Of a DNA stretch of 64,000 nt, positions 7,003 to 64,000 are shown piece after piece (position 1 is the stretch's first letter; every line of letters begins with the position of its first letter). Location: IMG/VR virus record IMGVR_UViG_3300018933_000001, positions 82,538 through 146,537 of that record; one strand, 5' to 3'. Origin of the DNA: a virus. The notes under the pieces were generated by a model. The model saw nothing but the letters and a program-made list of their open reading frames with translations, ran no database searches and was not told the DNA's origin. The translations under genes and the position numbers were made by a program.

Positions 7003-7064
7003 ATAAGTAAAAGAGGGAGCTATTAAACTCCCTTAAACATCTTAAAAACTAAGAGGAATAAATA

Positions 7065-7358: not shown

Positions 7359-7371
7359 TAGGACAAAACTT

Positions 7372-7761
7372 ATGACTCTGGAATCTCTCACTGCTAAGTT
7401 ACTTACAGACCCTGAAGTTAAGAGACATTACGAGGAGATGAAGATGGAATTTAACATTGCTAAAGAAATCATTAAACTTAGAACCAAGTTCGGATTAACC
7501 CAAAGACAATTAGCAGAGAAAGTAGGTATTAAACAACCTCAATTGGCTAGGATTGAAACAGGTAAACAGTTAGCTAGATTGGATACTTTGAAATTGATAG
7601 CTGAAAGTATGGGTTATTCAGTAGAAATCAGATTGGTTCCTCAAGAAACAGAACAAACAGCAGAAGAATTTGAAGAAGAGTATCATCGCAGAATAACTAG
7701 AGTAGAAAATGGAGAGGATGATGAGAATTGTTGGATTGAATATCCTACTAGAGAAGAATAA
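7372..7761 (+). CDS. XRE-family HTH protein (antitoxin-like)
   Basis: LLTDPEVKRHYEE...IAKEIIKLRTKFGLTQRQLAEKVGIKQPQLARIETG, typical of XRE partners of RelE/Gp49-like toxins. Confidence 0.85.
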   Translation: MTLESLTAKLLTDPEVKRHYEEMKMEFNIAKEIIKLRTKFGLTQRQLAEKVGIKQPQLARIETGKQLARLDTLKLIAESMGYSVEIRLVPQETEQTAEEFEEEYHRRITRVENGEDDENCWIEYPTREE

Positions 7762-7779
7762 CTTATTAGGAGAAAATAA

Positions 7780-8037
7780 ATGGTTGCTAGTTATATCAAC
7801 GGTCAGAATGAGAGATTTTTTGTTATAGAAGACTACACTATTAATGGATTTAATATCCAAATAGATAAGAAAGAAGCTACTGAAGAGTTCTATGGTAAAA
7901 TATATAACTCTTATGAGCCTTATGATTTAATCAAGACTATGAAAGATTTAGATTTAGAGAATCTAAAAAATAGTATTAAGGATTATACTTATAAGCTAAT
8001 TTTATTAGGGAACTCTTTAATAATGAGTAATTACTAA
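7780..8037 (+). CDS. Small protein with a divergent HicB-like domain
   Basis: AGGAG RBS; INGFNIQID...FYGKI...DLENLKNSIKDY. Confidence 0.55.
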   Translation: MVASYINGQNERFFVIEDYTINGFNIQIDKKEATEEFYGKIYNSYEPYDLIKTMKDLDLENLKNSIKDYTYKLILLGNSLIMSNY

Positions 8038-8130
8038 TTTTTAAATAACTAATAGGAAGAGGTAGATTATTATTCAAGATATTTTTAGATTCTTTTCTAA
8101 ATTTAACTGAAATAATAACTTACCATCCTC

Positions 8131-8193
8131 ACTGCTACTTTTTTATTAATCTCTGGGTATACCGACTTTAGAGATTCTAAAAAATTACCGCAA
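8131..8193 (-). repeat. 63-bp element, copy L (inverted relative to R1 and R2)
   Basis: ACTGCTACTTTTTTATTA...TACCGCAA; 42/63 ungapped identity to the reverse complement of 10053-10115 (hand count). Abuts the helicase stop codon. Confidence 0.85.
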
Positions 8194-43526: not shown

Positions 43527-44091
43527 AAGTTAAAGTAAATCCTTCAGGGGTGAGAATAGGTCTAGTAGTAGGTTTAGTTACTTTATCTATTGTTTTCTCT
43601 CCACTCATTTGTCCCGTATATTGTAGAGGTAAGTAGATAAGTCCTTTTCGGATTGTGTAACCTATATTGTAGTTCTCAGTTTCAGGTCTTACATAGTCTA
43701 TTACTTCTACAAACTTCTTTTCTTTAATTGCATCTTTGGCTATCTTGTCTAAAGAAACCATAATGTCAGTTAATGTATAGTCAAATTGAGCTGTAAAGCC
43801 CTTTCTTATTAGTGAGTATTTAACATAAGAACCTGAACCAGTAGGAGCCATTCTAGTAGCTTCCCCTTCAATAGTTACTTGATACGCATTAGGCTCAAGA
43901 AATAAACAGATATAAGATTTACCTCTAATAGTGTAGAGAACTTCTTTACCTATATCTGTCCCAGCTAATAGATTCTTTTCATTTAAGAAACATAACTTAC
44001 GAGTAAAAGGAAAACATTTAGTTAGGTCGTCTTCTCTACCGTGTTGTCCTAATATAACAGGGTCATCTATATCAATGAATTTGTTTACCAC
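43498..44091 (-). CDS. Putative distal tail protein
   Basis: Coupled directly after the tape measure gene; position only. Confidence 0.5.
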   Translation of the reverse strand: MVNKFIDIDDPVILGQHGREDDLTKCFPFTRKLCFLNEKNLLAGTDIGKEVLYTIRGKSYICLFLEPNAYQVTIEGEATRMAPTGSGSYVKYSLIRKGFTAQFDYTLTDIMVSLDKIAKDAIKEKKFVEVIDYVRPETENYNIGYTIRKGLIYLPLQYTGQMSGEKTIDKVTKPTTRPILTPEGFTLTFTENSYRMG

Positions 44092-47000: not shown

Positions 47001-50000
47001 GATTTTACTAATCTTAGTTTTCTCTAAAGAGATTTCTTCATCTATTAGGTCTCTCTTGTTAGCTACTCTTTGTTTATCTAACTTAAGTAGTTCTTCTCTC
47101 AACGCTCTTTCTAAATCTTTACGTTCTTTACTTCCTGCTTTAGTAAGATTAATTTGTTGTTTGATTCCCTCAATAGTTATTTGTATTTCTTCTTCTTTAG
47201 ATGCACGAACTTTCTTAGAATCTTCAGTGGAAGTTCCAAGTACCATTAATTTTTCTAGTTGAAGCTGACTGTCTTTAAAAGCTTTCTTTTTGTCGTCTAG
47301 CTGACTTTGAAGTCTTGACTTCTGATTTTCGTATACTTGTTTGTCTAACTGCAAAGTTGCTCTGGCTATTTCTTGTTCTAAAGCAATTCTTTCTTTACTA
47401 CCTGCTTGATATAACTTACTTCTTTCTGTAAGACTTTCAATAGTAGAACTAATTTCTTCTTCTTTTAACTTTCTGCTAGCCTCAATATCTTCATCAGTAG
47501 AACCTCTAATAGAATTCTTCTCTAACTCAGTTTGTTTAGATTCTAAGAGTTTCTTTCTATCTTCTAAAGATTGTTCTAGTCTATCTCTATCTTGTTTATT
47601 TTCAGTTTCGCTTAAAGATATTTGTGCTTCAGATAGCTGTTTCTGAATTTCTAAGAACTTTTCACTTCCTTCTTTTTCCAAGCCAAGTCTAGCTTCTAAC
47701 GATTTAATGTTAAGAGCAATCTTATCTTTCTCTAATTTTCTAGTTGCTTCTATCTCATCTTTGCTAGAACCATCAATAGCATTTTTACGAGCTTCTAATT
47801 CTCTTTTACCTAAATCGTTAGTTTGTAGCTTAAATTGTTCTTCTATTCTCTTTCTATTAATTTCTAAGATATTTAAGTTAAAGTCTTTCTCATCAGACTC
47901 CATAGATTTACGAATAGCTTTGATAGCTTTAGCATTTTTAACCTCGTCTTTTAATAGTTCAGTCAACATTTTCTGTTTTTCTGCTAGTTGAATATCGTAA
48001 AGTGTTCTAGAATCTTTTAGTTCTTCTTCTATATATTGACGACGAGTAATATTTCCTAACTCTAAATCTTTCTTTAGATTGTCAAACCTTTCTTTACTTT
48101 GAGCTTTAGCAATTTCAACAGGATTAGTAGACTTTTGACTTGAGAGATTAAGTTCGAGAGATTCTAATTCAGCTTTAGCTTTAACTACTTGAGGAGCAGA
48201 TTCTTTATAAAGTGTCAACAATCTAGCTAACTCAATCTTTTTATTCTTAATATTTTCTTCAGAAGTCTGAATATTGAGTTTGTTGATTTGCTCAATATAA
48301 TCAGTTTCTAGTAAAAATCCATATTTCTTCTGTTGTTCAAGAGCAGAAGTTTCCATCCCAATATAGCTAATTCGTTGTTCAGAAGCAGCTTTTTCATAAC
48401 CAATAAGAGTTTCAGTAAGGTCTTTATAAGCAGCCGGAGTGACTTTCCCCTTCATCTGGTTGTAGACATTCTCAAACTTCTTGGCAACTTCTTCGCTTGT
48501 AGCTTCTCCACTTTCTGCTACTGCATTGAGAGATTCTACAAATCCACCTAGATTAGCCTCAAATTTATTAAAATCTATTGAGTCTGCTGTAAGAGCTTTT
48601 TCAGTTTCTACTCCTATTTCTTTAAGAGCTGTTAGAATCTGGTCTTTATTCTTACCCGTAATAGCAGTTTTTAATTTCTCTAGTTGTTCAGATTTAATCT
48701 CGCTTTCTACTTGACCCAACTCTTTTAATCCCTCAGTAAGGTCTAATGTTCCATTTAAAGCCTCTTTAGTGAACTTTTCAGTAGAAGACGTAACATAAGT
48801 ATTAAGACCCTTAGAAGATGATTCTAAAGCGTTTAGGAAAGACTGTAAATCTGTTTCTGCTAACCTAAGAGATTTCTTAAGAGAAGTAGAGAACTGAGTA
48901 GCCCCAACATCGTCTTTCGTAGTAGATAGAAACTGTCTCTTCTTCTCTTGATACTTGTCTGATAAAACGCTAAAGTCAGCTAAATCTTTTTCTAAGTCTT
49001 TTAAGTTTATTAATTTGATTTGACCTTCAGATTCTTCATAGCTCTTACGCATTTTATTAGCAAGAACAGATAAGTCTTTAGGTATCTCTACTCCTGCCTC
49101 AGTTAACGCATCTCTAGTTTCTTTAAGACCTAAAACTTGTTCTAAAGAGTATTTCTTACCATCTATTTCTTTACCTTGAAGAACTGTTTCGATAGATTTA
49201 AGAACTGTATCTGGTAGTTTAGAAAGAACTTTACCATCTTGGTCTACTTTATAGATTTCTCCACCAAGACCTTTCAAAGTAGCTTTTACACTTAAACTAC
49301 CATCTTTAAGGTCAGATAAGAACTGTTTGGATTTAGTAGCAGAATCTTTAATAGAAGAAGAGTAAATGTCTAACCCTTCTGAAATATTAGTGTTAAGAGC
49401 AGTTTGAGAAGAGTTAACTTGTCCTTGAAGAGTTTTGATTTCTTCTAATGATACTTGTGCGTTGCTAAACTTATTTTCTCTGTCTAGTAGAAGATTACGA
49501 GCTTCATAATATTTAAGTTGGTCTTCAAATTGTTTCTTACTTACTTCTATTATTTTTTCTCTTCTTGAGATTTCAGATTCTAGTAAAGCAATTTGTTGTT
49601 TATCTCTATCGGTTAATTTATCACCTTTACCTTTTAGTTCTTCTAACGCTTTCTTTTGAATATCTGTCATTGACTGGAACGATTCAATTCTAGTGGTATT
49701 AGCAGCTTTCTCTCGCTCTAAATCCTCACCAGTCAAAATCATTCTGGCTTTAATCTTTTGGTTAGAAGTTTCAGTTAATAGATTGCCATTAGCTAATTCT
49801 TTATTTTGTCCTCTAAGAGCTAACTCATAAGTCTGAATAAAGTCAGATACTTGAGACATTTTAGCGGTTCTCTTAATGAACTCTCCATCTGAAAAACTGT
49901 TCCAGATTGTAGGTAAAAGTTTTGTAAGTGTTCCTCCAATATCTACAAAATTTAAAAGAGCTTTACCTGCATCTTTAATACTATTTCCAATAGAATCCCA

Positions 50001-53000
50001 TAATGTAGGTTCAAGACTAGCTTGTAGTTTAGAAGCTGCTTCTAGTCTATCACTAAATTTATTAAGTCCTTGGACGCTATTATCGAAAGAAATATTAGCT
50101 CTGTCGAATTTAGTAGCTGACTCTTCTAAAGTAATATTAAACTCTCTATAAGTTTCATCTAACTTTCTAGATTCAGATTCTACTTGGATTAATTTAGCTA
50201 GCAACATTCCTGCACCAGCAATTAGCAATCCAATACCTGTAGATATAAATGCAGCTTTAATAGATTCTGCTGATAATCCCGCAGCGTTAGCGATAGATGC
50301 AAATTTAGTTTTAGCACTATCAGCCATACTAGAAAAACTTCTAGCAGCTACAGTTCCTACTTGACCTAAATTACTTCTTAAATCTATAGCAGTATTTCTT
50401 AAATTGACTTGTGCATCGTTAAAAGCTTTTGTAGGGTTTTTAAGAGCATTTAACCCTCTACCAATACCTTCATAACTAGATATTAAACCTCTATTAAAAG
50501 CTGTATTTTTAAAAGCAACTGTTCCTGACCTAGTTCTTAACTCAATAAGAGAGCCTTCTGCTAGTCCTTGCTCTCTAGTTAAATCTCTAAGTTTAGTATT
50601 AGCTTCTTTCTCTGCTTTGTTAGCGTCTTTCCTAGCTTGTTGGTTTGTTACTTTAGCTTTTTGAACAGCTATTTGTTGACTAGCTTCTTCTTCTTGGAGA
50701 GCTATTACTTTTTTTAACTGTTCTTGATATTCTGCACTATCCTTATTACGGATTTTATCTAAATTAGCTTGTTCTTTTCTTAAATTGTTTTGTACTTGAT
50801 AAAGACGTTCTTGTTGACCTTTAAATGCAATATCTACTCTGTCCGCTGTAGCTTTCTTAGTATTTAAATCCTGTTGAAGAATAGCTAAATCTGTAGTAGC
50901 CTTAGTTACTCTATTGAGTCTCTCAGTTTGGTTAGTTTTAGCTGCTTCTAACTTTTCTGCTTCTTTTATTACTGCGTTATTAGCTTCTTGAAGTTTTTGT
51001 TTCTGTGTTAGTAGAACTAATTCTTCTTGGTCAATTTTAGAAGTTAAGTTTTTACTAGCATCTTTCAGAGAAGATTTTTCTCTATCTATTAGAGGATTTC
51101 TATTTTTCTGCTTCTCTTTTTCTTTTTCTAAAGTTTCTAGTTCTTTTAAACGTAAGGCAGCTAAATCTTCAAAGTCTTTCTCAGTTTTTTGACTTTTACT
51201 TTTAATAGCTTCTTTCTGTTTTTCTAAATCTTCTAGTTGTTTAAGTGTAGTTTTAGAGTACGTATCTTGTAACCTAATTTTTTCTTGATTAATTTGTTCT
51301 AATTGACGCTTTTCTTTTTCTCCAATATCCTTCTGTCTTATTAGAGCTTCTTGTGCATTTAGTTCTTGTAGTTTTTGATATCTAACAATATTCTCCTTAT
51401 CATCTTCTAAGCGAGTATCTATATCAGATTTAAGATTTTTAGTATTAAATATTTTACCTTCAGTCTCTGTAACTTGAGTTTGAATATCACTACTTTTAGA
51501 TTTCTTCTTATTCAGAGATTCTTCTACGTTACTAACTCTTTCTTGACCTTTAATAATAGATGTGTCACGAGCAACAATTGCGTCTATCTCTTTTTGAACA
51601 GCAGATATTGATGTAGCTCTTTCTGTGCTAGTCTTACCAATTGAGTTTACTAGCTCTTTTTCTAAAGTAGTAGAATTAGCAATTGCTTTATTAATCCTGT
51701 CTTGGCTGAGTAATCTTTGTTGGTCTATCCCTAATACTTGTTTTCCAATAGCTACTAAACCTTGATTGGAAGTATAAAGGTCTTTAATTACTCCTGCTTC
51801 TTTTCTTAAGTCTTTAAACCCGTTAGTAAGTCCTCCGAGAACTAAGCCAAAAGCTCTGAAGCTGAGTAAAGTACCTACAATACTGAGAAAGGTTTTGCTA
51901 ATAGCCCCAAGAACACCAGTAATTTTATTTAACGTATCAAAGAATGCTACTGACTTTTCTGCTATCTGGATAAGAGGTTCTTTAAAAGTAACTAATAATT
52001 CCTTATAAGTCTCTACTGAAGATATTCCTTCTTCACTTCTTTTTTGGAAAGCTTTCCCAAACGCAATCATTATCTCATCGTAAGAGTTAGTGATTTGTTC
52101 CATTTTGGCTTGAGAGGATTTAGTAGCACCGTCAAAAGCTTCTGTTAAATTTTCAGATGTTACTTGACTAATATCTTCAATAGATTTCTTAGCAAGCTTA
52201 CCGTTTTGAGCTAATACTTTCATTGCAAAGTTAAAAGCATTAGTTTCGTTATACACTTCTTTAATCTTTTCGGTGTTATAACCGACTGCTTCTGCAAAAT
52301 CTACTATTCCTTGAACTACTCCTTTTCTGCCAAAGTATTCTTGATTAAGGGTAATTGCTTTACCTTGTGCATCTACTAAACCTTCCAAAGCTTTCATTGC
52401 TTCAGGAGTTTTACCAATAGTATTTCTAGCAAAAGCTTGCATCTCAGTAGAAATATCAGTAACTTTTCCACCTAACTTAGTAAACGCAACTACTAAACCT
52501 TGAGTCTCGTTAACTAGGTCTTTAGTACCAATACCTGCATTTTTAAGAGAAGAGTACATATCACTGATATACTCAGTCATATCCCCTACAGTAGTAAGAC
52601 CGAGTTGTTCAGTAGCCAACCATTTAGCAGTTACTTCTTCTAATTCTGCAATATCCTTAGTTTCGAGAATACCTGCACCTTTACCAATAGCTCCACCGAT
52701 TTGGAATAAGTCACTTCCCGGAGCAGCTTTATTAGCTTTAATTGCAAGGTTAACTACATCTTGGTTTTGTTGAAATTCTGTAAAGCCAGCACTAGCAGCT
52801 TGATAGGCAGCATTCAAAGCAGTGAGAGAACTAACACTATTTTTTAGATTCTTCTCTAAACCATTTTGTAGTGCATCCCCATATTCAGATAATCTTTCTT
52901 GAGATAATCCAAATACAATATTGACTTCATTTAGTTTTTGTTCAAAGGTATTATAAGCAAGGGTAGACTTAGTAGTAAATTGCTCTATTGCTTCTGTATT

Positions 53001-53456
53001 ACCAGTTATTACTGCTCCTATTTCGTTAAAACTGTTGACCAAAGGACTAGCATCGTAACCACTAGCAGCCATGAGATTAAGACCGCGATTGGTAGTTTCT
53101 AACGCATTTTTAACTTCAAAAATTCCTCCTAGAACAGTATCAAAATATACTTTAGCTTGAGTAATATTTGTATAAGCAGTAAAAGCAGCAAAACTTAACC
53201 CAACAGTTTTTGTTAGTCCTTGGGTAGCTTTATTTAATGTAAGAGTAGTTTTAGTTAGATTTTCATATTCTACTAAAAGTTTTCCTACTACCTTTTGATT
53301 AGCGGTTATCTCAGTAGACGAACCTTTAAAACCTTGATTAAAGAGTTTGATAGTTTTTTCACCCATCTCCTTCATAGACTTTTGAGTCTTTTCTAGAAAC
53401 TGAGTAAATTTATCGTCACCTTCTACATTAAACTTAATATTGCTTGCAGTATCCAT
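44091..53456 (-). CDS. Tail tape measure protein
   Basis: 3121 aa, helical and coiled-coil, TP901-like core (FEQKLNEV..AYQAASAGF..TEQLGLTT), hydrophobic segments, downstream of the frameshifted chaperone. Confidence 0.95.
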   Translation of the reverse strand: MDTASNIKFNVEGDDKFTQFLEKTQKSMKEMGEKTIKLFNQGFKGSSTEITANQKVVGKLLVEYENLTKTTLTLNKATQGLTKTVGLSFAAFTAYTNITQAKVYFDTVLGGIFEVKNALETTNRGLNLMAASGYDASPLVNSFNEIGAVITGNTEAIEQFTTKSTLAYNTFEQKLNEVNIVFGLSQERLSEYGDALQNGLEKNLKNSVSSLTALNAAYQAASAGFTEFQQNQDVVNLAIKANKAAPGSDLFQIGGAIGKGAGILETKDIAELEEVTAKWLATEQLGLTTVGDMTEYISDMYSSLKNAGIGTKDLVNETQGLVVAFTKLGGKVTDISTEMQAFARNTIGKTPEAMKALEGLVDAQGKAITLNQEYFGRKGVVQGIVDFAEAVGYNTEKIKEVYNETNAFNFAMKVLAQNGKLAKKSIEDISQVTSENLTEAFDGATKSSQAKMEQITNSYDEIMIAFGKAFQKRSEEGISSVETYKELLVTFKEPLIQIAEKSVAFFDTLNKITGVLGAISKTFLSIVGTLLSFRAFGLVLGGLTNGFKDLRKEAGVIKDLYTSNQGLVAIGKQVLGIDQQRLLSQDRINKAIANSTTLEKELVNSIGKTSTERATSISAVQKEIDAIVARDTSIIKGQERVSNVEESLNKKKSKSSDIQTQVTETEGKIFNTKNLKSDIDTRLEDDKENIVRYQKLQELNAQEALIRQKDIGEKEKRQLEQINQEKIRLQDTYSKTTLKQLEDLEKQKEAIKSKSQKTEKDFEDLAALRLKELETLEKEKEKQKNRNPLIDREKSSLKDASKNLTSKIDQEELVLLTQKQKLQEANNAVIKEAEKLEAAKTNQTERLNRVTKATTDLAILQQDLNTKKATADRVDIAFKGQQERLYQVQNNLRKEQANLDKIRNKDSAEYQEQLKKVIALQEEEASQQIAVQKAKVTNQQARKDANKAEKEANTKLRDLTREQGLAEGSLIELRTRSGTVAFKNTAFNRGLISSYEGIGRGLNALKNPTKAFNDAQVNLRNTAIDLRSNLGQVGTVAARSFSSMADSAKTKFASIANAAGLSAESIKAAFISTGIGLLIAGAGMLLAKLIQVESESRKLDETYREFNITLEESATKFDRANISFDNSVQGLNKFSDRLEAASKLQASLEPTLWDSIGNSIKDAGKALLNFVDIGGTLTKLLPTIWNSFSDGEFIKRTAKMSQVSDFIQTYELALRGQNKELANGNLLTETSNQKIKARMILTGEDLEREKAANTTRIESFQSMTDIQKKALEELKGKGDKLTDRDKQQIALLESEISRREKIIEVSKKQFEDQLKYYEARNLLLDRENKFSNAQVSLEEIKTLQGQVNSSQTALNTNISEGLDIYSSSIKDSATKSKQFLSDLKDGSLSVKATLKGLGGEIYKVDQDGKVLSKLPDTVLKSIETVLQGKEIDGKKYSLEQVLGLKETRDALTEAGVEIPKDLSVLANKMRKSYEESEGQIKLINLKDLEKDLADFSVLSDKYQEKKRQFLSTTKDDVGATQFSTSLKKSLRLAETDLQSFLNALESSSKGLNTYVTSSTEKFTKEALNGTLDLTEGLKELGQVESEIKSEQLEKLKTAITGKNKDQILTALKEIGVETEKALTADSIDFNKFEANLGGFVESLNAVAESGEATSEEVAKKFENVYNQMKGKVTPAAYKDLTETLIGYEKAASEQRISYIGMETSALEQQKKYGFLLETDYIEQINKLNIQTSEENIKNKKIELARLLTLYKESAPQVVKAKAELESLELNLSSQKSTNPVEIAKAQSKERFDNLKKDLELGNITRRQYIEEELKDSRTLYDIQLAEKQKMLTELLKDEVKNAKAIKAIRKSMESDEKDFNLNILEINRKRIEEQFKLQTNDLGKRELEARKNAIDGSSKDEIEATRKLEKDKIALNIKSLEARLGLEKEGSEKFLEIQKQLSEAQISLSETENKQDRDRLEQSLEDRKKLLESKQTELEKNSIRGSTDEDIEASRKLKEEEISSTIESLTERSKLYQAGSKERIALEQEIARATLQLDKQVYENQKSRLQSQLDDKKKAFKDSQLQLEKLMVLGTSTEDSKKVRASKEEEIQITIEGIKQQINLTKAGSKERKDLERALREELLKLDKQRVANKRDLIDEEISLEKTKISKISSLLERSTIGGTFEKDLEKIREIKVKETQIVIQSIQKQLATYKLGSKERLALEAQLTQEITKLQKIEFGNKKEKLESQLEDARNKLDKQVALKEASLINGATEQELKIVEESKIKQTQLTIESIKKQMSLYKEGSKERLVLEANLQRELNNLRKQTLDKEKNLIQNSLDFKKVKIDITNIELEKKLLSGNLRREAFEDKLTVSSQKVNLLQQESFTKQLKFYQKGSKEYLEILKNLSQLQVDYQKTVVDKAIRDIDRITKTQNNSIEAQKQSVTRQLNSSDALSKELQEQIKLEDSRSSVIKATSDYQVGLLELTKRSTGDVEKRAKIDVQIAEMKQKALLESQELEINSIKNNALINEAALEREKIQINLNKLELDRSRLQTEAELRKAKLNKLDSAAIEALQLQLDSINDQYGVLGKSEDLINTQISNQAEISSNQLKVVRQQQDLAQKNSALDVEQAKQGLIIAGYEKQLSQLKMKGTLIEANANKEKVIGDLLTKAYDTQISLLNSRKELMDSTLSSIDTLYGIEQSMAKSDLTKDKLAREQAQDKLTYLELQQKMENESFNLEKAKNKIVRERQKVELTIAEINAKQALAMSKAEEARTNARKDATDEEKLAARLAVESAEQGILAAKANKELAIEVSKIEEQSEKNKELINARNQRNQRLQAEMAVAQTTTNTADDSQVRGKAQRFRELDERSIGSNNLTSTNQSQVEKILKEFTDSMRSRPPIEEIPTTNLTKALSTDTQPKNNISPTNIPGIGGLGRGVTTSSGTNRDNDTTKKDSTASSIYNLSKSIDKAEKSITKKLGLDTQSLIKTFNTNSKTLNKLIEVSVKNIGKNVTTATNSITGITLKGKKVVEPPKPKKGEIVPDSLRTIREAITNFKLSVDKSNIAKKKEADIRYKEEQKDNDKLQKSIEQLIDKIEEHIEKGGNVNITSPINVTGGGDKNVGVDINKHLYDLTEKIRRRQK
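46300..47900 (-). repeat. Six degenerate ~89-aa (267-bp) repeats in the tape measure gene
   Basis: GS(K/E) motifs with their Gly region at about 47668, 47401, 47134, 46867, 46600 and 46327 (spacing 267, 267, 267, 267, 273). Confidence 0.85.
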
Positions 53457-55723: not shown

Positions 55724-56083
55724 TTAGGTATTCTTTCTTGCATCACCAACAGCAGTTAGAAAAGTATCTAAATCCATAACTACTCCTCGAACTACTTCTC
55801 CTGTGACACTAGCTTGAGCATCAGTAGGAGCATCTGGAGCAGTACCAGCAAATGTTAGTTCTTGCAAATCTAATCGAACTGTTGTACCTGCAATTACCGG
55901 AATAATTTTGACTCGCTTCAATACTTTAGTAGCTGTACTTGCATCATCTTTGGTAACTGTATATTTAAGGTCAACTACATAGTTTTTATTAGTAGTGTCT
56001 TCTACTAGAGTCGCTGTAACCGGGACAGTTTCATCTAGTGTAGTTACTAGCTTGGGACGTGGAAAAGTTAAATTTATTGCCAT
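55724..56083 (-). CDS. Putative virion protein
   Basis: T/V/A-rich, between the neck and tube genes. Confidence 0.55.
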   Translation of the reverse strand: MAINLTFPRPKLVTTLDETVPVTATLVEDTTNKNYVVDLKYTVTKDDASTATKVLKRVKIIPVIAGTTVRLDLQELTFAGTAPDAPTDAQASVTGEVVRGVVMDLDTFLTAVGDARKNT

Positions 56084-56087
56084 AATA

Positions 56088-56630
56088 TTAGTCTGTGATT
56101 GTGATATCTGCTCTTAAAAACGAGTAGATGTTTTGTCCTACTTCATTAATCATTGTTCTATATTGAACTCTTATGCCTGGTTCTACTTTTACTTGACAGC
56201 TAGAAGTTAATAGCAATTTATTAATCTGATAACTAACCCAATTAAGTAAAGGCATTATTTTATCTTGTTTGGGAACTACTAAAGAATAAGAGATAGATAC
56301 GTTAGAAGTTCTATTTAATTTACCGGGTTTCCAATTATCATTTACTCTATAAACCTTTAGTAATGGAAATGCGGTAGTAGAAGAGTGATAAGCATCATAA
56401 GTCTCGTAAGTTCTTACTGCAATATCTCCTAATGAACTCCTTAAACCAGGATTAGCTTCTATAAAAGTTCTGAATTCTTTATTAATGTACTCAAATAAAT
56501 ATTCTGCTAAGTAACTGATGGCTTCATCTTTATCAGGAGTAAGCTCTAAGTTAGCTGAAAACTTTTGAGTAGAACCTAAGTTAGTCTTGTTCTGTAAGTT
56601 CTCTAACGCTCGTGGGTTTAGTTGGTACAC
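56088..56630 (-). CDS. Putative tail terminator or completion protein
   Basis: Position after the virion morphogenesis gene; FPLLKVYR strand. Confidence 0.5.
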   Translation of the reverse strand: MYQLNPRALENLQNKTNLGSTQKFSANLELTPDKDEAISYLAEYLFEYINKEFRTFIEANPGLRSSLGDIAVRTYETYDAYHSSTTAFPLLKVYRVNDNWKPGKLNRTSNVSISYSLVVPKQDKIMPLLNWVSYQINKLLLTSSCQVKVEPGIRVQYRTMINEVGQNIYSFLRADITITD

Positions 56631-57214
56631 TATTCTTTTAACTCCTTAATATCTGATTTAGTTCTTATCCTAGTTTCTCCAGTTAATACAAACTCATTAA
56701 TTACATCAACTATTTCTTTTTCTAATGCCTCATGAATAAATAAGAAAGGTCTAGGAGCAAGTTTACCTTTACTTCTAAACATCTCACTCACTCTTTCGTC
56801 TTGAAGCAAACTAAATGGAATAGTAGTTCCTATCTCAGGAGGTTGATGGTCTTTGGCATAACTAACTTTAGTTCCAAACGTGAAGCTTTCCCGAGTAATA
56901 GAGAAGACAGAATTATCATTACCCATCATCAATGAATTAAGTAACTTACCAGTATCTTTTAGTAGAGGTTTACCCATTCTTTCGGGATGAGTAGCTAACC
57001 AGTTAGGAGTCATAGCAGACCAGTAGATATTACCGTGAGCTAATCCACCTCTATTAGTTAGAGGGGCAGTAGCAAACCTCAACTTAACATCTTCTACTAA
57101 TACTTCTTTGATACCTGCTTCTAGTTGAGTAATATCCTTCTTCCTCTTCAAAGCATTCTCAAACTTCCTACTCAACCCTTCTAACCCACTAAAATCTGCT
57201 GATAAAGTTACCAT
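56630..57214 (-). CDS. Phage virion morphogenesis protein (Mu gpG / P2 gpS-like)
   Basis: W..MTP, LKDTGKLLNSL, FGTKVSYAKDHQ, PRPFL; GAGG before ATG 57214. Confidence 0.85.
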   Translation of the reverse strand: MVTLSADFSGLEGLSRKFENALKRKKDITQLEAGIKEVLVEDVKLRFATAPLTNRGGLAHGNIYWSAMTPNWLATHPERMGKPLLKDTGKLLNSLMMGNDNSVFSITRESFTFGTKVSYAKDHQPPEIGTTIPFSLLQDERVSEMFRSKGKLAPRPFLFIHEALEKEIVDVINEFVLTGETRIRTKSDIKELKE

Positions 57215-57221
57215 ACTAACC

Positions 57222-58121
57222 TCATTTACTATCAACTAAAGTAGTCATTAGATTAAAACTTCCAGCTTCAACAGGAGGATATCTACCATCTAAGCTATCT
57301 ATTACCCTCACTTCATAATAGAGTTTAGTAGGTCTTTGATTAGTAATTAAGTAGAAGTCAGATTCTTTTAGTTGAATTTGAGCTTTATATTCCCTAATAG
57401 CTGAATCAGGAAGTGTCTTAACCTGAATAAACTTAATACCTCCTTTATTAGTAGAAGAGTATATAACTGCTGTATCATCTGGGTCAGAAATGTTTCTCTT
57501 TACTATGAACTCTATGTCTGTACCTTCTTTAGTTAACCTATCTCCATAAATTAAAATGTTAATAGCATGAACTGAGTTACGAGTAAGAGCATAACCATTA
57601 AGAGATACATCTACTCCTTTGATAATGACGTATGTTTGACCAGTAGGAGCCTCAGTTAATATATCTCGTTCTACTTTACTAATAGTAAAAGAAGATTTAT
57701 CTGTTTCTAGAGTTGCTGTTAACGCTCTTGTAATTTTAGGAGATATAGTAATAGAACTAGAATCTGAGGATAAAACTCCTTTAGTAGCTCTCCAAGCTGT
57801 CAAAAAAATATTAGTTCTAGCTGGTTGAACGTTAATAGTAGCAGAAGTTGCAACTCCTCTTTTACCATTAATAGTTGCTTTACTCTTATCAGTAAAGATA
57901 TTAGTTATATTACTAACCCATCTTGTCATTCCAGCAATTGCTTTACTCTTATCAGTAAAGATATTAGCAGTTAACCCTCTAATGTAACTGACTTTATCAA
58001 TAGTCATATTGCTCTTATCAGTTTCTATAGTTGCTTCTAATGACCTAACATAAGAAACCTTCTCTATAGTTGCTGAAGAATTATCTGTACTGATAGTGGC
58101 TTGAAGTGCGTATTTAGTCAT
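57222..58121 (-). CDS. Virion protein with ~21-22-aa beta repeats and a C-terminal Ig/BppU-like domain
   Basis: Repeated LxATIxTDKSxxTIxK; GGAG before ATG 58121. Confidence 0.65.
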   Translation of the reverse strand: MTKYALQATISTDNSSATIEKVSYVRSLEATIETDKSNMTIDKVSYIRGLTANIFTDKSKAIAGMTRWVSNITNIFTDKSKATINGKRGVATSATINVQPARTNIFLTAWRATKGVLSSDSSSITISPKITRALTATLETDKSSFTISKVERDILTEAPTGQTYVIIKGVDVSLNGYALTRNSVHAINILIYGDRLTKEGTDIEFIVKRNISDPDDTAVIYSSTNKGGIKFIQVKTLPDSAIREYKAQIQLKESDFYLITNQRPTKLYYEVRVIDSLDGRYPPVEAGSFNLMTTLVDSK

Positions 58122-58125
58122 AAAC

Positions 58126-58956
58126 TTACTCCCAAACAGAGATAGCTCCAACTGGAATTCTCAAAATATCCAAAGAGTTAATTACTTTAGTTTCGTTATC
58201 TCCAAAAACACCACAATATAAGAGAGTAGTGTTACCAGTAGCAGTTCGGTGTAAAGCAAAAGATTTGATACTTTCCCAATCTGCATTTAGAGCAGCAGGA
58301 AATACCAATTGCATTAAGTTCTTTACATTACGACCTGTTACTTGCCAGTTAGCAGAATTACAAGGAATAGGAATTCGAGTATAACCAGGGGATTTAGAAG
58401 CTACAAGTTCGCCAATATCTCCTGTCATTGTAGGAGCCATAGTACCTAGAGCTAAGTAGATTTCACTAGGAGTCTCAAAAGTTTCATTTCTTAAGAGTTT
58501 CAGTTGAGCGTTAGCTAGATAATCACTCTTAGTAAAAGTAGGTTTAGTTTCTTGGATAATGATTTTTCCGGGAGGGAAATAGTGACCATCTCCTAAATTA
58601 AGACTCTTACCTAAATCAATATGACCAAAGTAGATAGGTACGGTATCTGAAGTTTCATCAAAGATACCTATAGCAACTACTGTAGGAAATTGAGCAATAG
58701 AATCAGGGAAAAATACAGGTTGTTGATTAGTACAAACTCTATTAACTGGTTCAGTCCAATAGCTAACACCAGTAGGATAAGGAACTTTTGTATAACCAGT
58801 AGAACTAGCAGGTTCAGTAAAGTTACCTCCATCAATAGTTGGAAGGGTAGTAGATAGACCAATAAATAGATTGTTGTTGAGAGGAGCTTTTACTAACTCA
58901 CCTTTGAAGAAGTTTAGTAGATTAGCTGCTTGTAACGGACTTTTGTTGTCTGCCAT
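58126..58956 (-). CDS. Minor tail protein with two tandem copies of one domain
   Basis: FIGLSTT.P...EP..TGYTKV..W..N...FP repeated as YLALGT.AP...EL..PGYTRI..W..N...FP. Confidence 0.8.
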   Translation of the reverse strand: MADNKSPLQAANLLNFFKGELVKAPLNNNLFIGLSTTLPTIDGGNFTEPASSTGYTKVPYPTGVSYWTEPVNRVCTNQQPVFFPDSIAQFPTVVAIGIFDETSDTVPIYFGHIDLGKSLNLGDGHYFPPGKIIIQETKPTFTKSDYLANAQLKLLRNETFETPSEIYLALGTMAPTMTGDIGELVASKSPGYTRIPIPCNSANWQVTGRNVKNLMQLVFPAALNADWESIKSFALHRTATGNTTLLYCGVFGDNETKVINSLDILRIPVGAISVWE

Positions 58957-59034
58957 AATGTTTGATTTTTTGACTTTACTTTTATACTAATTGAGTTGTG
59001 TTACTAATATGAAAATTATTCAGTTTGGGAATGA

Positions 59035-59544
59035 CTAACTATTTACTCTCCATCTGTTATATAACTTTTCCCAACCTGCTGACATTAACTGTTTAAAGTA
59101 AATAGGTTCTCCAGTAAGAATAAAGTTTAATTCATCTTGCCAAATAGGGTAATAAGTGAAGCTGTTATTATCAATATAGTTATTGTCTATATCTACTAAT
59201 GAAATTGAGTATTGGAAATGGAATAATCCTTCATGATGTTCTTCATATCTATTAATCCAGATAGTATGTGGAACAAGTAGAGTATGTTCCTTAATAACCT
59301 TAGAAGCTAAACTATATATCTCAGTTGTAATTGACCCAGCTACATGATCATCAAAATCGCTGCATATAACCACTTCATATTCTTGAGGATTAAGATACCT
59401 ACGTTTAACCTTAATAGCTTTACTTGTTTCATCAAAGTCATACAGTGGTGAATAAATTTGTAATCTACAGTTATTATTCTGAGTACCTGTACTTGTATCT
59501 GATTGCCAGTTAAGTATCTTATCTACTTTAAGTGCATTTCTCAT
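59035..59544 (-). CDS. Hypothetical protein
   Basis: 169-aa ORF overlapping the HNH gene. Confidence 0.7.
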   Translation of the reverse strand: MRNALKVDKILNWQSDTSTGTQNNNCRLQIYSPLYDFDETSKAIKVKRRYLNPQEYEVVICSDFDDHVAGSITTEIYSLASKVIKEHTLLVPHTIWINRYEEHHEGLFHFQYSISLVDIDNNYIDNNSFTYYPIWQDELNFILTGEPIYFKQLMSAGWEKLYNRWRVNS

Positions 59545-59881
59545 GACTATCTTCTTTAGTTATGTTATTAGTTATCTTAGTCCATAATGTTAACAATTTA
59601 TCTTCTAAACAAGGTTGATAGATATGAGTACCTTGTCTTAAGTTGCATGATTTGCACGAGTAAAGGAGGTTAAGTTCATTAGTTACTAAAGTAATAGAAT
59701 TATATAGCTTAAGTAGTTTAATAGGAATAATGTGGAATAGATGTCCTTCTCCTAATGATATAGGTAGCCTACATATTGGACATAAATACAATGACTTCCT
59801 AATAAGACTTCTACTAATCTCCCAAGCTTCTCTACTTCTTTTCCAAGTATTAAATTTAGAACGAAATTGACACTTAGACAT
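59528..59881 (-). CDS. HNH endonuclease
   Basis: CPIC, HLFHIIP, NELNLLYSCKSCNLRQG. Confidence 0.85.
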   Translation of the reverse strand: MSKCQFRSKFNTWKRSREAWEISRSLIRKSLYLCPICRLPISLGEGHLFHIIPIKLLKLYNSITLVTNELNLLYSCKSCNLRQGTHIYQPCLEDKLLTLWTKITNNITKEDSHEKCT

Positions 59882-60243
59882 TACTTACGCTTTTTACCTT
59901 TATCTGACCTACCATCTTTATCTTTCTTACCAATAGGACTTAGAGGATTAGCTTTATGAGTTAGATAAGCAGTAGTCCCAAGTAATCCACCTGCTATAAC
60001 TGCACCTGCTAACTTACGTTTATAACCTCCAGCTCCTAAAGCTCTATTCATATTATTTTCTCTAATACCTTTGAACATACTAGATGACTTACCTAACTGG
60101 TACCCTCCAAAACCACCAATAGCTGCTGTAGTTCCAATATGAGCTTTAGCTGCGTTAGGACTCCACATAGCTGTTTTTTCTTTCTTCTCTTTTGCAAAAC
60201 TAGCTTGAATATTAGAAGAACCCATAAATGTAATTTTTTTCAT
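59881..60243 (-). CDS. Basic Gly-zipper protein with ITFMG leader; putative internal virion protein
   Basis: MKKITFMG..NIQASF; two Gly-rich hydrophobic segments; GRSDKGKKRK tail. Confidence 0.6.
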   Translation of the reverse strand: MKKITFMGSSNIQASFAKEKKEKTAMWSPNAAKAHIGTTAAIGGFGGYQLGKSSSMFKGIRENNMNRALGAGGYKRKLAGAVIAGGLLGTTAYLTHKANPLSPIGKKDKDGRSDKGKKRK

Positions 60244-60269
60244 AGTCTTATAATCTTATTGTTTGTTGT

Positions 60270-60881
60270 TTATCCGTACCATAGAGGAATCTCACCATCT
60301 TGAGCAACAGAACGATTCCAATGTCTTCCATCTCCAAAATTAACATCAATATTGTTCTTATTATTCTTATAACTACCTAAGACAGTAAAGTTTTGAGTAG
60401 CAGAAGTCCTTTTATATCCTAGCTCAGGGGTATTTGGAAGTATTAGTCTAGAAGCATTTTGCATTGCATTATCTTCAGGAGCAGATACACCTGGAATATA
60501 GATATTAGTACCTATAAAGTAGCTCTTAAGTAGCTCTTTAGCTTTTTGGTAGATAGTAGAACCTAATCCCCCATCACCTCCTAAACTAGCTATCATTCCT
60601 TGGTCATATAAGGACATCATCAAATCATTAATAACAAATCCTACTACTATCGGTTCTATTAAGGGAATGTCTAAAGGATGTATTGGTAAAATGTATAACA
60701 TCCTAAAGTAAGTATCTATTAATGTCTCATTAGCTAAGATTAGTTCGTGTACTAATTCAACATCTAAATTAGAAGATATAACCGATACATTATCAGAAGG
60801 TATAAGAGACTCAGTAAATATATTAGCTCGTCTACCTAACCTTCTTTGAATTTTCTCTACTGTGCAATATTTATACATCAT
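60270..60881 (-). CDS. Head-tail adaptor, Mu gp36/DUF1320-like
   Basis: YCTVEKIQRRLG...IDTYFRMLYILPI...YQKAKELL. Confidence 0.7.
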   Translation of the reverse strand: MMYKYCTVEKIQRRLGRRANIFTESLIPSDNVSVISSNLDVELVHELILANETLIDTYFRMLYILPIHPLDIPLIEPIVVGFVINDLMMSLYDQGMIASLGGDGGLGSTIYQKAKELLKSYFIGTNIYIPGVSAPEDNAMQNASRLILPNTPELGYKRTSATQNFTVLGSYKNNKNNIDVNFGDGRHWNRSVAQDGEIPLWYG

Positions 60882-61093
60882 CTAAACATTCTACCTATAC
60901 TATGAGCTGTACTAATCCACCGTCTAGTCTCCTGAGCTACTTGAACTCCAGTCTTTACTCTCTCTCTATCTTCTTTATGAGCTAATATACCTGCTTTCTT
61001 AGGTTTCAGTTTACGTTTGTATCTCTTTCTACCCTCTGCATTGGTCTTGCTAAACTCAATATTATTTATATGACCCATAAAAGTAATTCTCAT
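60878..61093 (-). CDS. Small basic protein with ITFMG leader
   Basis: MRITFMGHINNIEFSK; K/R-rich. Confidence 0.65.
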   Translation of the reverse strand: MRITFMGHINNIEFSKTNAEGRKRYKRKLKPKKAGILAHKEDRERVKTGVQVAQETRRWISTAHSIGRMFR

Positions 61094-61094
61094 A

Positions 61095-62654
61095 TTAATC
61101 TTTCTTTCCTTCTATCTGTTTAAGCTCTTTATTGTATTGAATAAGATAGGGTTTAGCTAGATTATGGTAAAGAGCAGGAAACAATATCCCAAATATTACG
61201 TAACTAACTACAAGCACTGCTGTTAGGTTCTTAAAGTTAATATTCTTACCTAAACTTAAAACATTGATATTTAGTAAGTCACTTAACTCAGAAGATAGTT
61301 TAGATTGAGTTTCTTTTATCCTACTAACATCTTCTCTTAAATCTTTAACATCATATTTTAGGTTAGCTACTTCACTAAGAAGGTTATTTCCGTTATTGTG
61401 GAAGATAGTATCATTAAGTCTTTTAAGTTCTTCTTCTATCTTTCTAATAATTATCTCAGCTTTAATTAATCCTTCAGAGCTAGAAGTAAGAGGAGTATCT
61501 ACAAGTTTTCTAAACACATCATTATTAAAATTAGTATTAGTAGAGTAGAGAGTTTTTAGCAGTAAATCAGACCTCTCCTCCATTTCTACTAATTTAGTAG
61601 CTAATGACGCTTCCTCACTTCTATCAATAATTGAAGATAAAACTCTTAAATCTCCATCTCTAATAGCAAGTTTGTTAGACCATTTAGTATCTAAGTGATT
61701 ACCGTCTCTTTTACAGATTTTATAGTTGCTAACTACTAGCTCTACTTCATGGTTAAGTAGCCTCTTAAGCTGTCCTTGCATTGCAATAGTATCTTCAGAA
61801 TTAAGGAGACTGATATCTCTAATATTTTTACCAATAATAGAGCTATCCCAACCTAGTAATTCCTTAGCCTGTTGATTCCAACGAGAAATGTTAAAGTTTC
61901 TATCCCATTCAATTTTTATAAGTAAGCTGCTATTAAAATTCTCTTCATCTAATAAAGCCAATTCAGCCAACCTATTAGACATTAACTCATCTTTAGTAAT
62001 ATCTCTTAAGTAGCTAATAGTTACAACAACATTCTCTCTTAGAATCCTACAAGTATGGTCAAGAACTGTTATATCTTTACCTGATTTAGTAACTAACCTG
62101 TATTTCTGGTAGAAAGATGCTGTACCTCTATCCAAATAAGTCAGTAGCTCAGATTTAAAAGACAGAATATCTTCTGGGTGGACAAAAGAAATATAAGGTT
62201 GAGCTAGTATTTCTTGTTTTGTATATTCAAGAAGCCCAGCTAAATTATCAGATATATCTTCTGCAAGACCCTCTTTTGAGTTAACCCATTGAATAAGAAA
62301 TAGATAGTTTTCTTTAAATAAGGTACTTTCTAATAAACTATCTGACTTTTGACTACCAACTAAGATAATGAAATTGAGATATTTATAACCAAACAAAGTT
62401 AGTGATATCTCTTTCTCACTTCTTGGGTCAGTAACTGTAAAATCTCCAATATTCTCGCCAACCTCAAAAGCTTTATTTAGAAAGTCATAAACAGATTCAG
62501 CATAAATCGGCCCTTGAGCGTTAATAAAGCTACTAATAGGTTTATCTAATCTATCAGTACGGTAGCTAGGGAGATAGTACGTAATACTATCACTTATATA
62601 TCGGTAATAATACTCATCCTCAATTTTTTCAAATAATACACTAAATACAATCAT
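61095..62654 (-). CDS. PAS-PAS-coiled-coil protein with a C-terminal TM helix and no enzymatic output domain
   Basis: PAS1 YISFVHPED...QKYRLVTKSGKDITVLDHT; PAS2 IEWDRNFNISRWNQQAKELLGW..IIGKN...KRDGNHLDTKW; heptads; LTAVLVVSYVIFGILFPALY. Confidence 0.9.
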   Translation of the reverse strand: MIVFSVLFEKIEDEYYYRYISDSITYYLPSYRTDRLDKPISSFINAQGPIYAESVYDFLNKAFEVGENIGDFTVTDPRSEKEISLTLFGYKYLNFIILVGSQKSDSLLESTLFKENYLFLIQWVNSKEGLAEDISDNLAGLLEYTKQEILAQPYISFVHPEDILSFKSELLTYLDRGTASFYQKYRLVTKSGKDITVLDHTCRILRENVVVTISYLRDITKDELMSNRLAELALLDEENFNSSLLIKIEWDRNFNISRWNQQAKELLGWDSSIIGKNIRDISLLNSEDTIAMQGQLKRLLNHEVELVVSNYKICKRDGNHLDTKWSNKLAIRDGDLRVLSSIIDRSEEASLATKLVEMEERSDLLLKTLYSTNTNFNNDVFRKLVDTPLTSSSEGLIKAEIIIRKIEEELKRLNDTIFHNNGNNLLSEVANLKYDVKDLREDVSRIKETQSKLSSELSDLLNINVLSLGKNINFKNLTAVLVVSYVIFGILFPALYHNLAKPYLIQYNKELKQIEGKKD

Positions 62655-62660
62655 TTCATT

Positions 62661-62936
62661 TTATACTTTATGTTTAGGAGTTACTCTAGGAGTTAATAGT
62701 CCTACTGCAATACCTGTCTCCGCACTTTTCTTAATATCCTCATTTACTCTTAGTCTTCCATTAGAAATACCAAATAAACCGACAGTTGAAAGAATTAGAC
62801 TTGTAAAATCTTCTTTAGTTAGTTTCCCATCATAAATCCAGTTAACTACTGGAACATAAGCAACGGACAACCAAAGAGCTAAAGAGAATAGAAAAGTTTT
62901 ACTTAGATATAGAGAGCGTTTCATAGTTTCTTTCAT
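62661..62936 (-). CDS. Putative holin (2 TM)
   Basis: 91 aa next to the endolysin; YLSKTFLFSLALWL, LILSTVGLFGISNGR; charged C-tail. Confidence 0.7.
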   Translation of the reverse strand: MKETMKRSLYLSKTFLFSLALWLSVAYVPVVNWIYDGKLTKEDFTSLILSTVGLFGISNGRLRVNEDIKKSAETGIAVGLLTPRVTPKHKV

Positions 62937-62943
62937 AAATTAA

Positions 62944-63705
62944 TTAAGCTGGAAGATGTAACCAATAATTTCCATCTCCTTCAGGTGCGCCAACTTGAGC
63001 AATTAGAGAGTAAGAGTATAAAGTCTCTTTTCCAGTTGTAGGAGTATGAATATAACCGTTATGAGTAAACTCGCCATAAGGGTCATTGACTATAAATGCA
63101 CCTCTACCGTCATAAGCAGAATCATCATATCCAACTACTAGCACAATGTGGCTAGCCTCAGTTAAGTAAGTACCTAAAATTACAGGAGCTTTACTAACAG
63201 CTTCCTTTAACTCTTGAGCAGTTCCAGAAGTAGTAGAATAATGTTTAACTCCGTAGCTTTTAAGTATCGCAGTAATATCTTGCCAAGAAAATCTGTTATA
63301 ACCTAAATCTAAGCACTTGTTGTAGAGTTGGTCAGGAGTTACATTAATCTTATAAAAAGACAGTAACATCGCAACACAGGTCAAGAAGCAAGAAGTATAA
63401 GGATGGTAGTGATTATATATTTGGTAGTAGTAATCAGTTTTCAATACATTCTTAGTAGATTTCTTTTTCTTATCCTCTACTACTTCAACGTGTTCTTTAT
63501 AGATAAACCAACTTCTAATTCCTACTGGACTATCCGGAAAATTAGTAGATAGTTTAATTTCATAATGAGCATCTTTCTCTCTCAAAATCTCAACTTCTAT
63601 TTCTTTACCAGTATCTAACCAGTAAAGATATCTTGGCTGCAACTCGATGAAAGGAATGGCACGACTTTTTAACGGAGTTCGATTAATAATTTTTAGTTTA
63701 GTCAT
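62944..63705 (-). CDS. Putative endolysin, peptidase C39-like
   Basis: YYQ...SCFLTCVAM, SHIVLVVGYD, FIVNDPYG; N-terminal LKI...T.LK...H..I.L...WFIY.EHV domain typical of cyanobacterial wall hydrolases. Confidence 0.85.
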   Translation of the reverse strand: MTKLKIINRTPLKSRAIPFIELQPRYLYWLDTGKEIEVEILREKDAHYEIKLSTNFPDSPVGIRSWFIYKEHVEVVEDKKKKSTKNVLKTDYYYQIYNHYHPYTSCFLTCVAMLLSFYKINVTPDQLYNKCLDLGYNRFSWQDITAILKSYGVKHYSTTSGTAQELKEAVSKAPVILGTYLTEASHIVLVVGYDDSAYDGRGAFIVNDPYGEFTHNGYIHTPTTGKETLYSYSLIAQVGAPEGDGNYWLHLPA

Positions 63706-63719
63706 AATTATTTCTTTTT

Positions 63720-64000
63720 TTAAATTAATGTAACTTTACTTGTGAGATAGCCTTCATCTAACGTAACTTCTGCTGTATCTGGGAAAGTTCCTTTAACAAC
63801 ATAGTAAATAGATGAGTCGAGTTTAGGGTCTAGCTTTGACTGAATAGTTTCCTTCTCTACTAGACCTTTAAAGATTATTCTATTAGGTTCAGTAACTATA
63901 GGAGATAGACCACTATAAGTACCATAATTTCCAACACTAAAATTAGTAGTAGAAGTATTGGTAAAAACAGTAAAGTTAACAGATACTCCAACTCCTAATA
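63720..64000 (-). CDS. Hypothetical protein (5' partial)
   Basis: Open frame from the window edge, ...LGVGVSVNFTVF...YLTSKVTLI*. Confidence 0.65.
   Translation of the reverse strand, partial: LGVGVSVNFTVFTNTSTTNFSVGNYGTYSGLSPIVTEPNRIIFKGLVEKETIQSKLDPKLDSSIYYVVKGTFPDTAEVTLDEGYLTSKVTLI

Follow-up and report, generated by a model that had tools for sequence, protein, structure and literature searches.

The timing of phage lysis, which sets burst size and phage fitness, is known to be controlled by the holin's own clock, by second-start antiholins made from the holin gene, and by superinfection-sensing antiholins (T4 RI/RIII). In T4 (RI/RIII with holin T), P1 (LydB with LydA) and lambda (S107) a separate or alternative protein sets the timing of the holin; T4 RIII acts from the cytoplasmic side, and what T4 responds to is superinfection, which is sensed in the periplasm. 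To our knowledge none of these antiholins carries a PAS domain or another canonical small-molecule sensor domain. Here we analyze a stretch of 64,000 nucleotides of viral DNA (IMG/VR record IMGVR_UViG_3300018933_000001, positions 82,538 to 146,537; hereafter the window) in which a protein of 519 amino acids (aa) with PAS domains, the PAS protein, is encoded directly after a C39-type peptidase and a holin-like protein of 91 aa (p91). The initial annotation of this locus proposed a signal-gated lysis system and knew of no described equivalent; likewise, our literature search turned up no publication that deals with PAS domains in a phage lysis cassette. The PAS protein has no sequence or fold relation to the T4, P1 and lambda antiholins; T4 RIII and P1 LydB are candidate functional analogues.

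The C39 peptidase, p91 and PAS genes are three consecutive open reading frames (ORFs) on the minus strand, separated by gaps of 7 bp and then 6 bp. Their coordinates, and those of the parts of the PAS protein, are as follows (TM, transmembrane; pLDDT, predicted local distance difference test):

62944..63705, minus strand: putative endolysin, 253 aa; SH3-like beta domain (residues 1-77), flexible linker and C39_2 papain-like cysteine peptidase
62661..62936, minus strand: holin-like protein p91, 91 aa; hydrophobic segments at about residues 14-34 and 44-60 (hydropathy)
61095..62654, minus strand: triple-PAS, coiled-coil, tail-anchored membrane protein, 519 aa; whole gene
62349..62654, minus strand: N-terminal PAS-like alpha/beta domain, residues 1-102; fold only, AlphaFold pLDDT 65-81
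62001..62303, minus strand: PAS-A, residues 118-218, of PAS_3/S-box type; invariant SFYQ.Y.L, DH.C and YLRDI motifs
61623..61919, minus strand: PAS-B, residues 246-344; TIGR00229 stretch 240-346, PAS_9 match at 3.9e-4, and model
61272..61622, minus strand: helical stalk and coiled coil, residues 345-461; heptads and model
61164..61229, minus strand: single C-terminal TM helix, residues ~476-497; Kyte-Doolittle maximum 2.39, modelled as a helix
61098..61163, minus strand: lysine-rich C-terminal tail of 22 aa with invariant P502 and E510; presumed outside the cytoplasm

The assignment of PAS domains draws on both profile searches and structure prediction. With hidden Markov models (HMMs), PAS_3 matches residues 125-221 at 46.9 bits (against a cut-off of 25.6), PAS_9 and PAS reach 33.9 bits (cut-off 27) and 31.2 bits (cut-off 22.6), and the sensory_box model TIGR00229 scores 53.3 bits (cut-off 22.9) over two stretches, the best of which is 240-346. 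A six-frame search of the genome shows that PAS_9 matches both PAS-A and PAS-B. The AlphaFold model (27 homologs) contains three PAS-like alpha/beta domains, mostly at a pLDDT of 70-90, followed by helices at 345-461, which are of low confidence as a monomer, and a long helix at 474-516. As modelled, each of the three domains has the five-stranded antiparallel sheet with flanking helices of a PAS fold. The best Foldseek match is the triple-PAS protein PpsR (383 columns aligned), and DosP, FixL and ARNT/HIF come next; the matches to PpsR, FixL, DosP and ARNT have E values of 1e-10 to 1e-13.

In the coiled coil, the a/d positions are hydrophobic throughout helix 393-419 (100%) and to 91% in helix 425-461. 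Helix 393-419 is also the most conserved element of the PAS protein (16 of its 27 columns are invariant), as expected for a signalling or partner-binding element, and the TM helix and tail are its least conserved part. The stalk is probably dimeric. Given the absence of a signal sequence, the PAS domains and the stalk are expected to be cytoplasmic, with the protein tail-anchored in the inner membrane. No match to HisKA, HATPase, GGDEF, EAL or HTH was obtained for the PAS protein (Pfam at E <= 0.1; NCBIfam); together with the strong C-terminal TM helix, this leaves the membrane as its only evident place of action. The LOV adduct cysteine (GxNCRFLQ) is absent as well: residues 276-282 of the PAS protein read GKNIRDI at this place, and the family consensus has GKNIREI. 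Similarity to the heme-PAS proteins FixL and DosP is at fold level only, and H159 lies within an HPED motif that is common in PAS_3. An assignment as i-spanin (Rz type) was tried and rejected: the protein carries its TM helix at the C-terminus and lacks a signal sequence, and no same-strand ORF of at least 40 aa is embedded in the gene.

Most of what the initial annotation had described for the three genes is confirmed by these data. The co-orientation and both gap lengths agree with the ORF coordinates, and the coiled coil, the single C-terminal TM helix, the tail of about 20 aa, the missing kinase, GGDEF/EAL and HTH outputs and the missing LOV cysteine are all recovered. Two points on the proteins needed revision. 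Two PAS domains had been reported and both are supported by HMMs, but the AlphaFold model and Foldseek add a third PAS-like domain at residues 1-102. Likewise, the '2-TM holin' does possess two hydrophobic segments, but the second one is short and weaker.

In comparison with PpsR, FixL, DosP and PER/ARNT, the PAS protein shares the tandem PAS folds joined by helical linkers and the PAS_3/S-box signature; those proteins terminate in a kinase, phosphodiesterase or DNA-binding domain, whereas in the PAS protein this place is taken by a coiled coil with a membrane anchor. This end of the protein is more reminiscent of XhlA (Bacillus PBSX-type), where a cytoplasmic coiled coil is followed by a C-terminal TM helix and the gene stands beside holin and endolysin genes. 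XhlA, however, measures about 90 aa and is devoid of a sensor domain, and its HMM (PF10779) matches nothing in this genome, even at E <= 1.

A membrane-tethered cytoplasmic protein that controls lysis has been described in phage Mu, namely the releasin gp25 (DUF2730; PMC9239132). Like the PAS protein as predicted here, gp25 is membrane-tethered, mostly cytoplasmic and encoded with lysis genes; it controls the action of the endolysin rather than forming the lethal hole. gp25 is a small protein with an N-terminal TM anchor and no sensor domain, acting on a signal-arrest-release (SAR) endolysin; the PAS protein, in contrast, is anchored C-terminally and has three predicted PAS folds, and the peptidase encoded with it is without a SAR or TM segment. 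There is no Pfam match of DUF2730 to the PAS protein. This phage also has a Mu-like head gene (gpI-like).

The product of the first gene of the trio matches Pfam Peptidase_C39_2 (PF13529) at 1.6e-17 and phrog_10051 'endolysin' at 1e-15, and Q95, C106, H186 and D208 are invariant across 19 homologs. The AlphaFold model (moderate, pLDDT 62) begins with a beta domain, from which a disordered linker leads to a papain-like domain; Foldseek matches are to C39 peptidase domains and to isolated SH3 domains and, at low template-modelling scores (TM-scores), also to two-domain SH3b plus NlpC/P60 peptidoglycan endopeptidases of Anabaena and Nostoc. With intact catalytic residues and a predicted wall-binding-type domain, the protein has the composition of an endolysin. 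Hydropathy gives no hydrophobic N-terminus and no SAR or TM segment, so that the protein would need a holin to reach the wall. The catalytic domain, when searched with tblastn against the phage collection, matches cyanophages only (Microcoleus, Acaryochloris, Leptolyngbya, Arthronema, Synechococcus and Prochlorococcus phages), several of which have the gene annotated as endolysin or lysozyme (annotation only). Searches for six common families of wall hydrolases (Phage_lysozyme, Amidase_2, SLT, M23, NlpC/P60 and Amidase_3) returned no match anywhere in the genome.

A C39-like domain has been described as the catalytic domain of an endolysin in mycobacteriophages (LysA domain N5; PMC3314691), and Peptidase_C39_2 as a lysin domain (PMC8223927). 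The likeness with these lysins lies in the use of a papain-like Cys-His peptidase as muralytic domain together with a wall-binding-type domain; they come from Gram-positive or mycobacterial hosts, whereas the role in cyanophages is one of annotation only. For window 62944-63705 against L002 1201-2373, conservation between clades is much higher in the C39 protein (84%) than in the major capsid protein (57%) and the PAS protein (55%).

For p91 no family was found in Pfam or PHROG, and its homologs (57 clusters) all fall within this phage lineage. Its first hydrophobic segment is strong, and the second is shorter, weaker and Gly/Ser-rich; the C-terminal tail, which contains K, R and E residues, is conserved (GR.RVN.DI..SAE.G). 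Judged by its sequence, p91 has the characteristics of a class II holin: it is small, has two predicted TM segments (the second short) and a hydrophilic C-terminus, and adjoins a peptidase gene. Comparable pairs were seen in two unrelated phages. In Microcoleus phage My-WqHQDG a C39_2 gene is directly followed by a 106-aa ORF with two TM segments, and in the temperate-phage contig L028 (IMGVR_UViG_3300040801_006105, 6746-8684) the gene of a 280-aa SH3-like plus C39_2 protein overlaps a 55-aa TM ORF, after which comes a tyrosine integrase. p91 and the Microcoleus phage TM protein show no significant similarity (BLASTP E = 12) and are alike in topology alone. Given these C39_2 plus small-TM pairs, the SH3-like plus papain-like fold and the absence of any other recognisable peptidoglycan hydrolase, the reading of genes 1 and 2 as a putative endolysin and a putative class-II-type holin is reasonably supported, and we consider it likely.

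Homologs of the PAS protein are confined to one phage lineage. We found 33 full-length homolog clusters (51-91% identity, 513-520 aa), and the order C39, p91, PAS is identical in all 12 related contigs inspected (PAS identity 50-92%). The wider order is kept in the same 12 contigs: capsid, HhH protein, a 153-aa protein (p153), a further gene, C39, p91, PAS, a cationic gene and a 203-aa gene (p203). Within IMG/VR the C39 and PAS genes are never apart, and the PAS gene never occurs away from C39 plus p91. Outside this group, tblastn with the full-length PAS protein found nothing in 50,697 phage records, a query with the PAS pair alone produced only noise there, and no relative of the PAS protein was present in a set of one genome per prokaryote species. 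A phmmer search with the C-terminal 182 residues against 1.8 billion representative proteins returned only the own family and one spurious repetitive coiled coil, the Atlas feature search with residues 345-519 returned nothing, and in Cellulophaga phage phi46:3 (one record examined) there was no PAS_9 match.

By capsid protein, the nearest cultured phages are the Pseudanabaena phages PA-SR01 and Pam2 (28% identity). In PA-SR01 the homologs of the gpI-like, 277-aa, capsid, 203-aa and tape-measure genes are arranged as they are here, yet just two small genes separate the capsid gene from the 203-aa homolog; C39, p91 and PAS are all absent. From this comparison the trio looks like an accessory insertion and not like a conserved part of the virion core; its absence from the syntenic PA-SR01 module argues against a function in core morphogenesis. 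The C39 protein was also considered as a prohead protease, and this was rejected on account of the Mu gpI-like protease/scaffold gene located upstream and the absence of the C39 gene from PA-SR01. The match in capsid and synteny to Pseudanabaena phages, together with the restriction of C39 matches to cyanophages, indicates that the host is probably a cyanobacterium. The lineage as a whole probably comprises siphoviruses of cyanobacteria with genomes of about 130-150 kb.

The trio is embedded in a capsid-to-tail morphogenesis operon, between the major capsid gene and the conserved 203-aa gene. Along the minus strand the order is terminase, several genes including a Mu gpI-like gene (413 aa), a 277-aa gene, the major capsid gene (phrog_29), the HhH protein, a 153-aa gene, a gene that spans the contig junction, C39, p91, PAS and a 71-aa gene (p71), which is a fourth co-oriented gene situated 1 bp past the PAS gene. 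Past p71 lie a 203-aa gene, a 120-aa gene, an HNH gene, a 169-aa gene, the gene of a Gp80-type head fibre and others, as far as that of a 3121-aa protein. A simple scan of positions 56000-64000 for promoter-like and terminator-like signals found none above the shuffled background, so the trio is apparently part of one long late transcript. Lysis genes are also located between head and tail genes in phage P2. Of the earlier term 'lysis cassette', the endolysin-holin part is supported, but the genes sit inside the morphogenesis operon and do not form a separate lysis module.

The explanation that we favour, tentatively and at somewhat less than an even chance, is that the PAS protein is an accessory lysis regulator (an antiholin or a pro-holin cofactor) whose state is set by a cytoplasmic cue. 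Under this explanation the trio would have entered the late head-to-tail operon as an accessory cassette. Gene 1 would be a cytoplasmic SH3b-like plus C39_2 cysteine endopeptidase, most likely the endolysin, and p91 would most likely be the class-II-type holin that serves it. The PAS protein would be made late, together with holin and endolysin; its PAS domains may read a cytoplasmic signal (a ligand, the redox state or the energy state), after which the protein would change holin triggering at the membrane. The more specific form of this proposal is unlikely as it stands, namely that the output-less triple-PAS sensor reads a redox, energy or metabolite cue of a photosynthetic host and delays or triggers the neighbouring holin via the coiled-coil stalk.

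A number of observations weigh against a role in lysis regulation. What connects the PAS protein with lysis is its position and its membrane anchoring, and nothing beyond these two. The order of endolysin, holin and PAS genes, whose conservation was suggested as a check, does hold in 12 of 12 related loci, but these belong to a single lineage in which the whole operon is syntenic, and the conserved order is consequently weak evidence of functional coupling. On its other side the PAS gene has structural genes as neighbours. The C39_2 plus small-TM pairs of My-WqHQDG and L028 are both without a PAS gene. The C-terminal coiled-coil/TM module has no homologs among known lysis proteins, and no cofactor signature was found in the PAS protein. 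In addition, p91 itself has an N-terminal double methionine (M-x3-M-K-R, the second Met 4-5 codons on), which is kept in 10 of 11 homologs (alignment A2). Such a two-start motif is known from the S holins of lambda and phage 21, where the antiholin is made from the holin gene itself. The double start of p91 may represent a similar holin/antiholin device, in which case a separate antiholin would not be required.

A further point comes from the comparison of close relatives. Holin genes are known to be freely exchanged among phages. In the clade nearest to the window (the window, L003, L004 and L005), where C39 is 85-93% and PAS 80-97% identical, p91 occurs in two allele types that are only 53-57% identical to each other. 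The alleles differ even where the C39 and PAS genes on either side share about 92% identity between the phages compared, which points to a recombinational swap of the middle gene p91 alone. Across both allele types the TM helix and tail of the PAS protein remain 84-91% identical, and over all pairs the p91 distances do not track the distances of the PAS TM and tail (Spearman 0.17). Even with such free exchange, this lack of co-variation argues against a closely co-adapted TM-TM interface between p91 and the PAS protein; the two may still touch through residues that are invariant in the tail of p91 and in the stalk of the PAS protein. Of the lysis regulator proposed initially, the membrane anchor and the missing output domain stand, but the link to lysis is one of adjacency, with holin alleles that are swapped while the PAS TM helix and tail do not follow.

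It might be argued that the PAS protein is a late, membrane-tethered protein with a task outside lysis: a decoy or sequestering partner for host PAS kinases or regulators, a modulator of the membrane or the thylakoid, or a superinfection-exclusion factor, placed here as a moron by accident of insertion. The missing co-variation with the holin would fit this well, and so would the nature of the cassette region, which is a hotspot of gene exchange (the HNH gene, the alternative cationic genes and the swapped p91 alleles). PAS domains commonly heterodimerise, consistent with the PER/ARNT/HIF-type matches, and in BFVD most of the other viral proteins with PAS domains belong to signalling, e.g. histidine kinases. 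Against it, the PAS gene shows no independent mobility and is always accompanied by C39 and p91, the prokaryote genomes searched contain no homolog that could have been the origin of a decoy, and placement in a late operon fits a late function better than host takeover. On balance we find a task outside lysis unlikely, though less so than the other alternatives. A role in the virion or its assembly is quite improbable. The PAS protein would then serve, for example, in ejection or as a pilot, inserting its TM helix into the host membrane, or assist in assembling the head-tail junction, with C39 as a virion-associated wall-degrading or processing enzyme. The position between the major capsid gene and conserved head/tail genes, the shared N-terminal leader of neighbouring small cationic proteins (see below) and the stronger conservation of C39 than of the capsid between clades (84% against 57%) could all be read in this way. 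However, PA-SR01 has the syntenic module without the trio, a Mu gpI-like protease/scaffold gene is already available upstream, no structural match was found in PHROG, and neither S-box PAS domains nor a tail anchor are features of known virion proteins.

Two further alternatives concern the assignment of the lysis functions themselves, and we judge both to be very unlikely. One is that the PAS protein is not a regulator but the hole-former ('sensor-holin') or an XhlA-type co-holin. It shares an operon with the peptidase, and with a coiled coil ahead of a C-terminal TM helix it is laid out like PBSX XhlA; nonetheless, the XhlA model finds nothing in this genome, a small candidate holin with two TM segments is already present, 519 aa is far above the size of any holin known to us, and the TM helix and tail are the least conserved part of the protein. 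The other is that C39 and p91 are not lysis genes at all, the peptidase being, for example, a leader-processing protease for the neighbouring cationic proteins. The classical C39 family does cleave double-glycine leaders (Foldseek matches 6mpz and 3k8u), and two nearby cationic proteins share a leader, but the C39 protein carries an SH3-like domain of wall-binding type, C39_2 plus TM pairs occur beside an integrase or standing alone in other phages, cyanophage homologs are labelled endolysin or lysozyme (annotation only), and the genome has no other endolysin candidate.

The gene that follows the PAS gene belongs to a variable slot:

60878..61093, minus strand: strongly cationic protein, 71 aa (19 K/R); 1 bp after the PAS gene, variable slot

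Between the PAS gene and the p203 homolog (the window and L003-L013) this slot always holds a small cationic protein of one of two unrelated types. Proteins of the first type have 68-71 aa with 20-21 K/R, and those of the second have 116-140 aa with 22-31 K/R, start with MWRPFD and contain a Gly-zipper-like hydrophobic stretch. The two types alternate even between close relatives (L006 versus L008). A role as packaged proteins for DNA binding or ejection is conceivable, and so is one as disruptin-like cationic disruptors of the outer membrane. The 71-aa protein (60878-61093) shares the N-terminal leader ITFMG..NI.. with the cationic 120-aa protein encoded nearby (59881-60243), which also carries Gly-zipper segments and is tandemly duplicated in L001 and L008.

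As to the genome, the window is the final 64 kb of a single viral contig of 146,537 bp with a GC content of about 32%. The contig ends repeat over 127 bp, indicating a circular assembly; we take an end overlap of this length to be typical for circular assembly at k = 127. A CheckV-type completeness value of 48% is given for the genome despite the terminal repeats. One PAS-protein homolog sits on a contig of 325 kb (P0002), which is either a concatemer or a sign that some relatives are much larger. The contig junction is spanned by a beta-rich ORF of roughly 130 aa (window 63720-63998 plus L002 3-248), directly upstream of the C39 gene. The 3121-aa ORF at 44091-53456 is presumed to be the tape measure, with weak similarity to that of PA-SR01 (24% over 364 aa), and would imply a very long tail. 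An HNH-type endonuclease gene (117 aa, 59528-59881; weak Pfam match, 1.3e-3) lies within the structural operon, and its position relative to its neighbours differs among relatives, which suggests a mobile element. A search for a tyrosine integrase in this genome found none, and the PADLOC search gave no match.

Even if the PAS protein should prove unrelated to lysis, it would still be an unusual output-less, tail-anchored triple-PAS protein that is confined to one phage lineage. If it does regulate lysis, it would represent a compact natural switch from sensor to membrane, and lysis gated by host physiology via a dedicated sensor domain would be a mode undescribed for any studied phage. The outcome of infection in cyanobacteria depends on light and energy supply, so that a metabolic gating of lysis would be ecologically relevant. 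It would mean that phages can couple the decision to burst to the metabolic state of the host by means of a canonical ligand or redox sensor.

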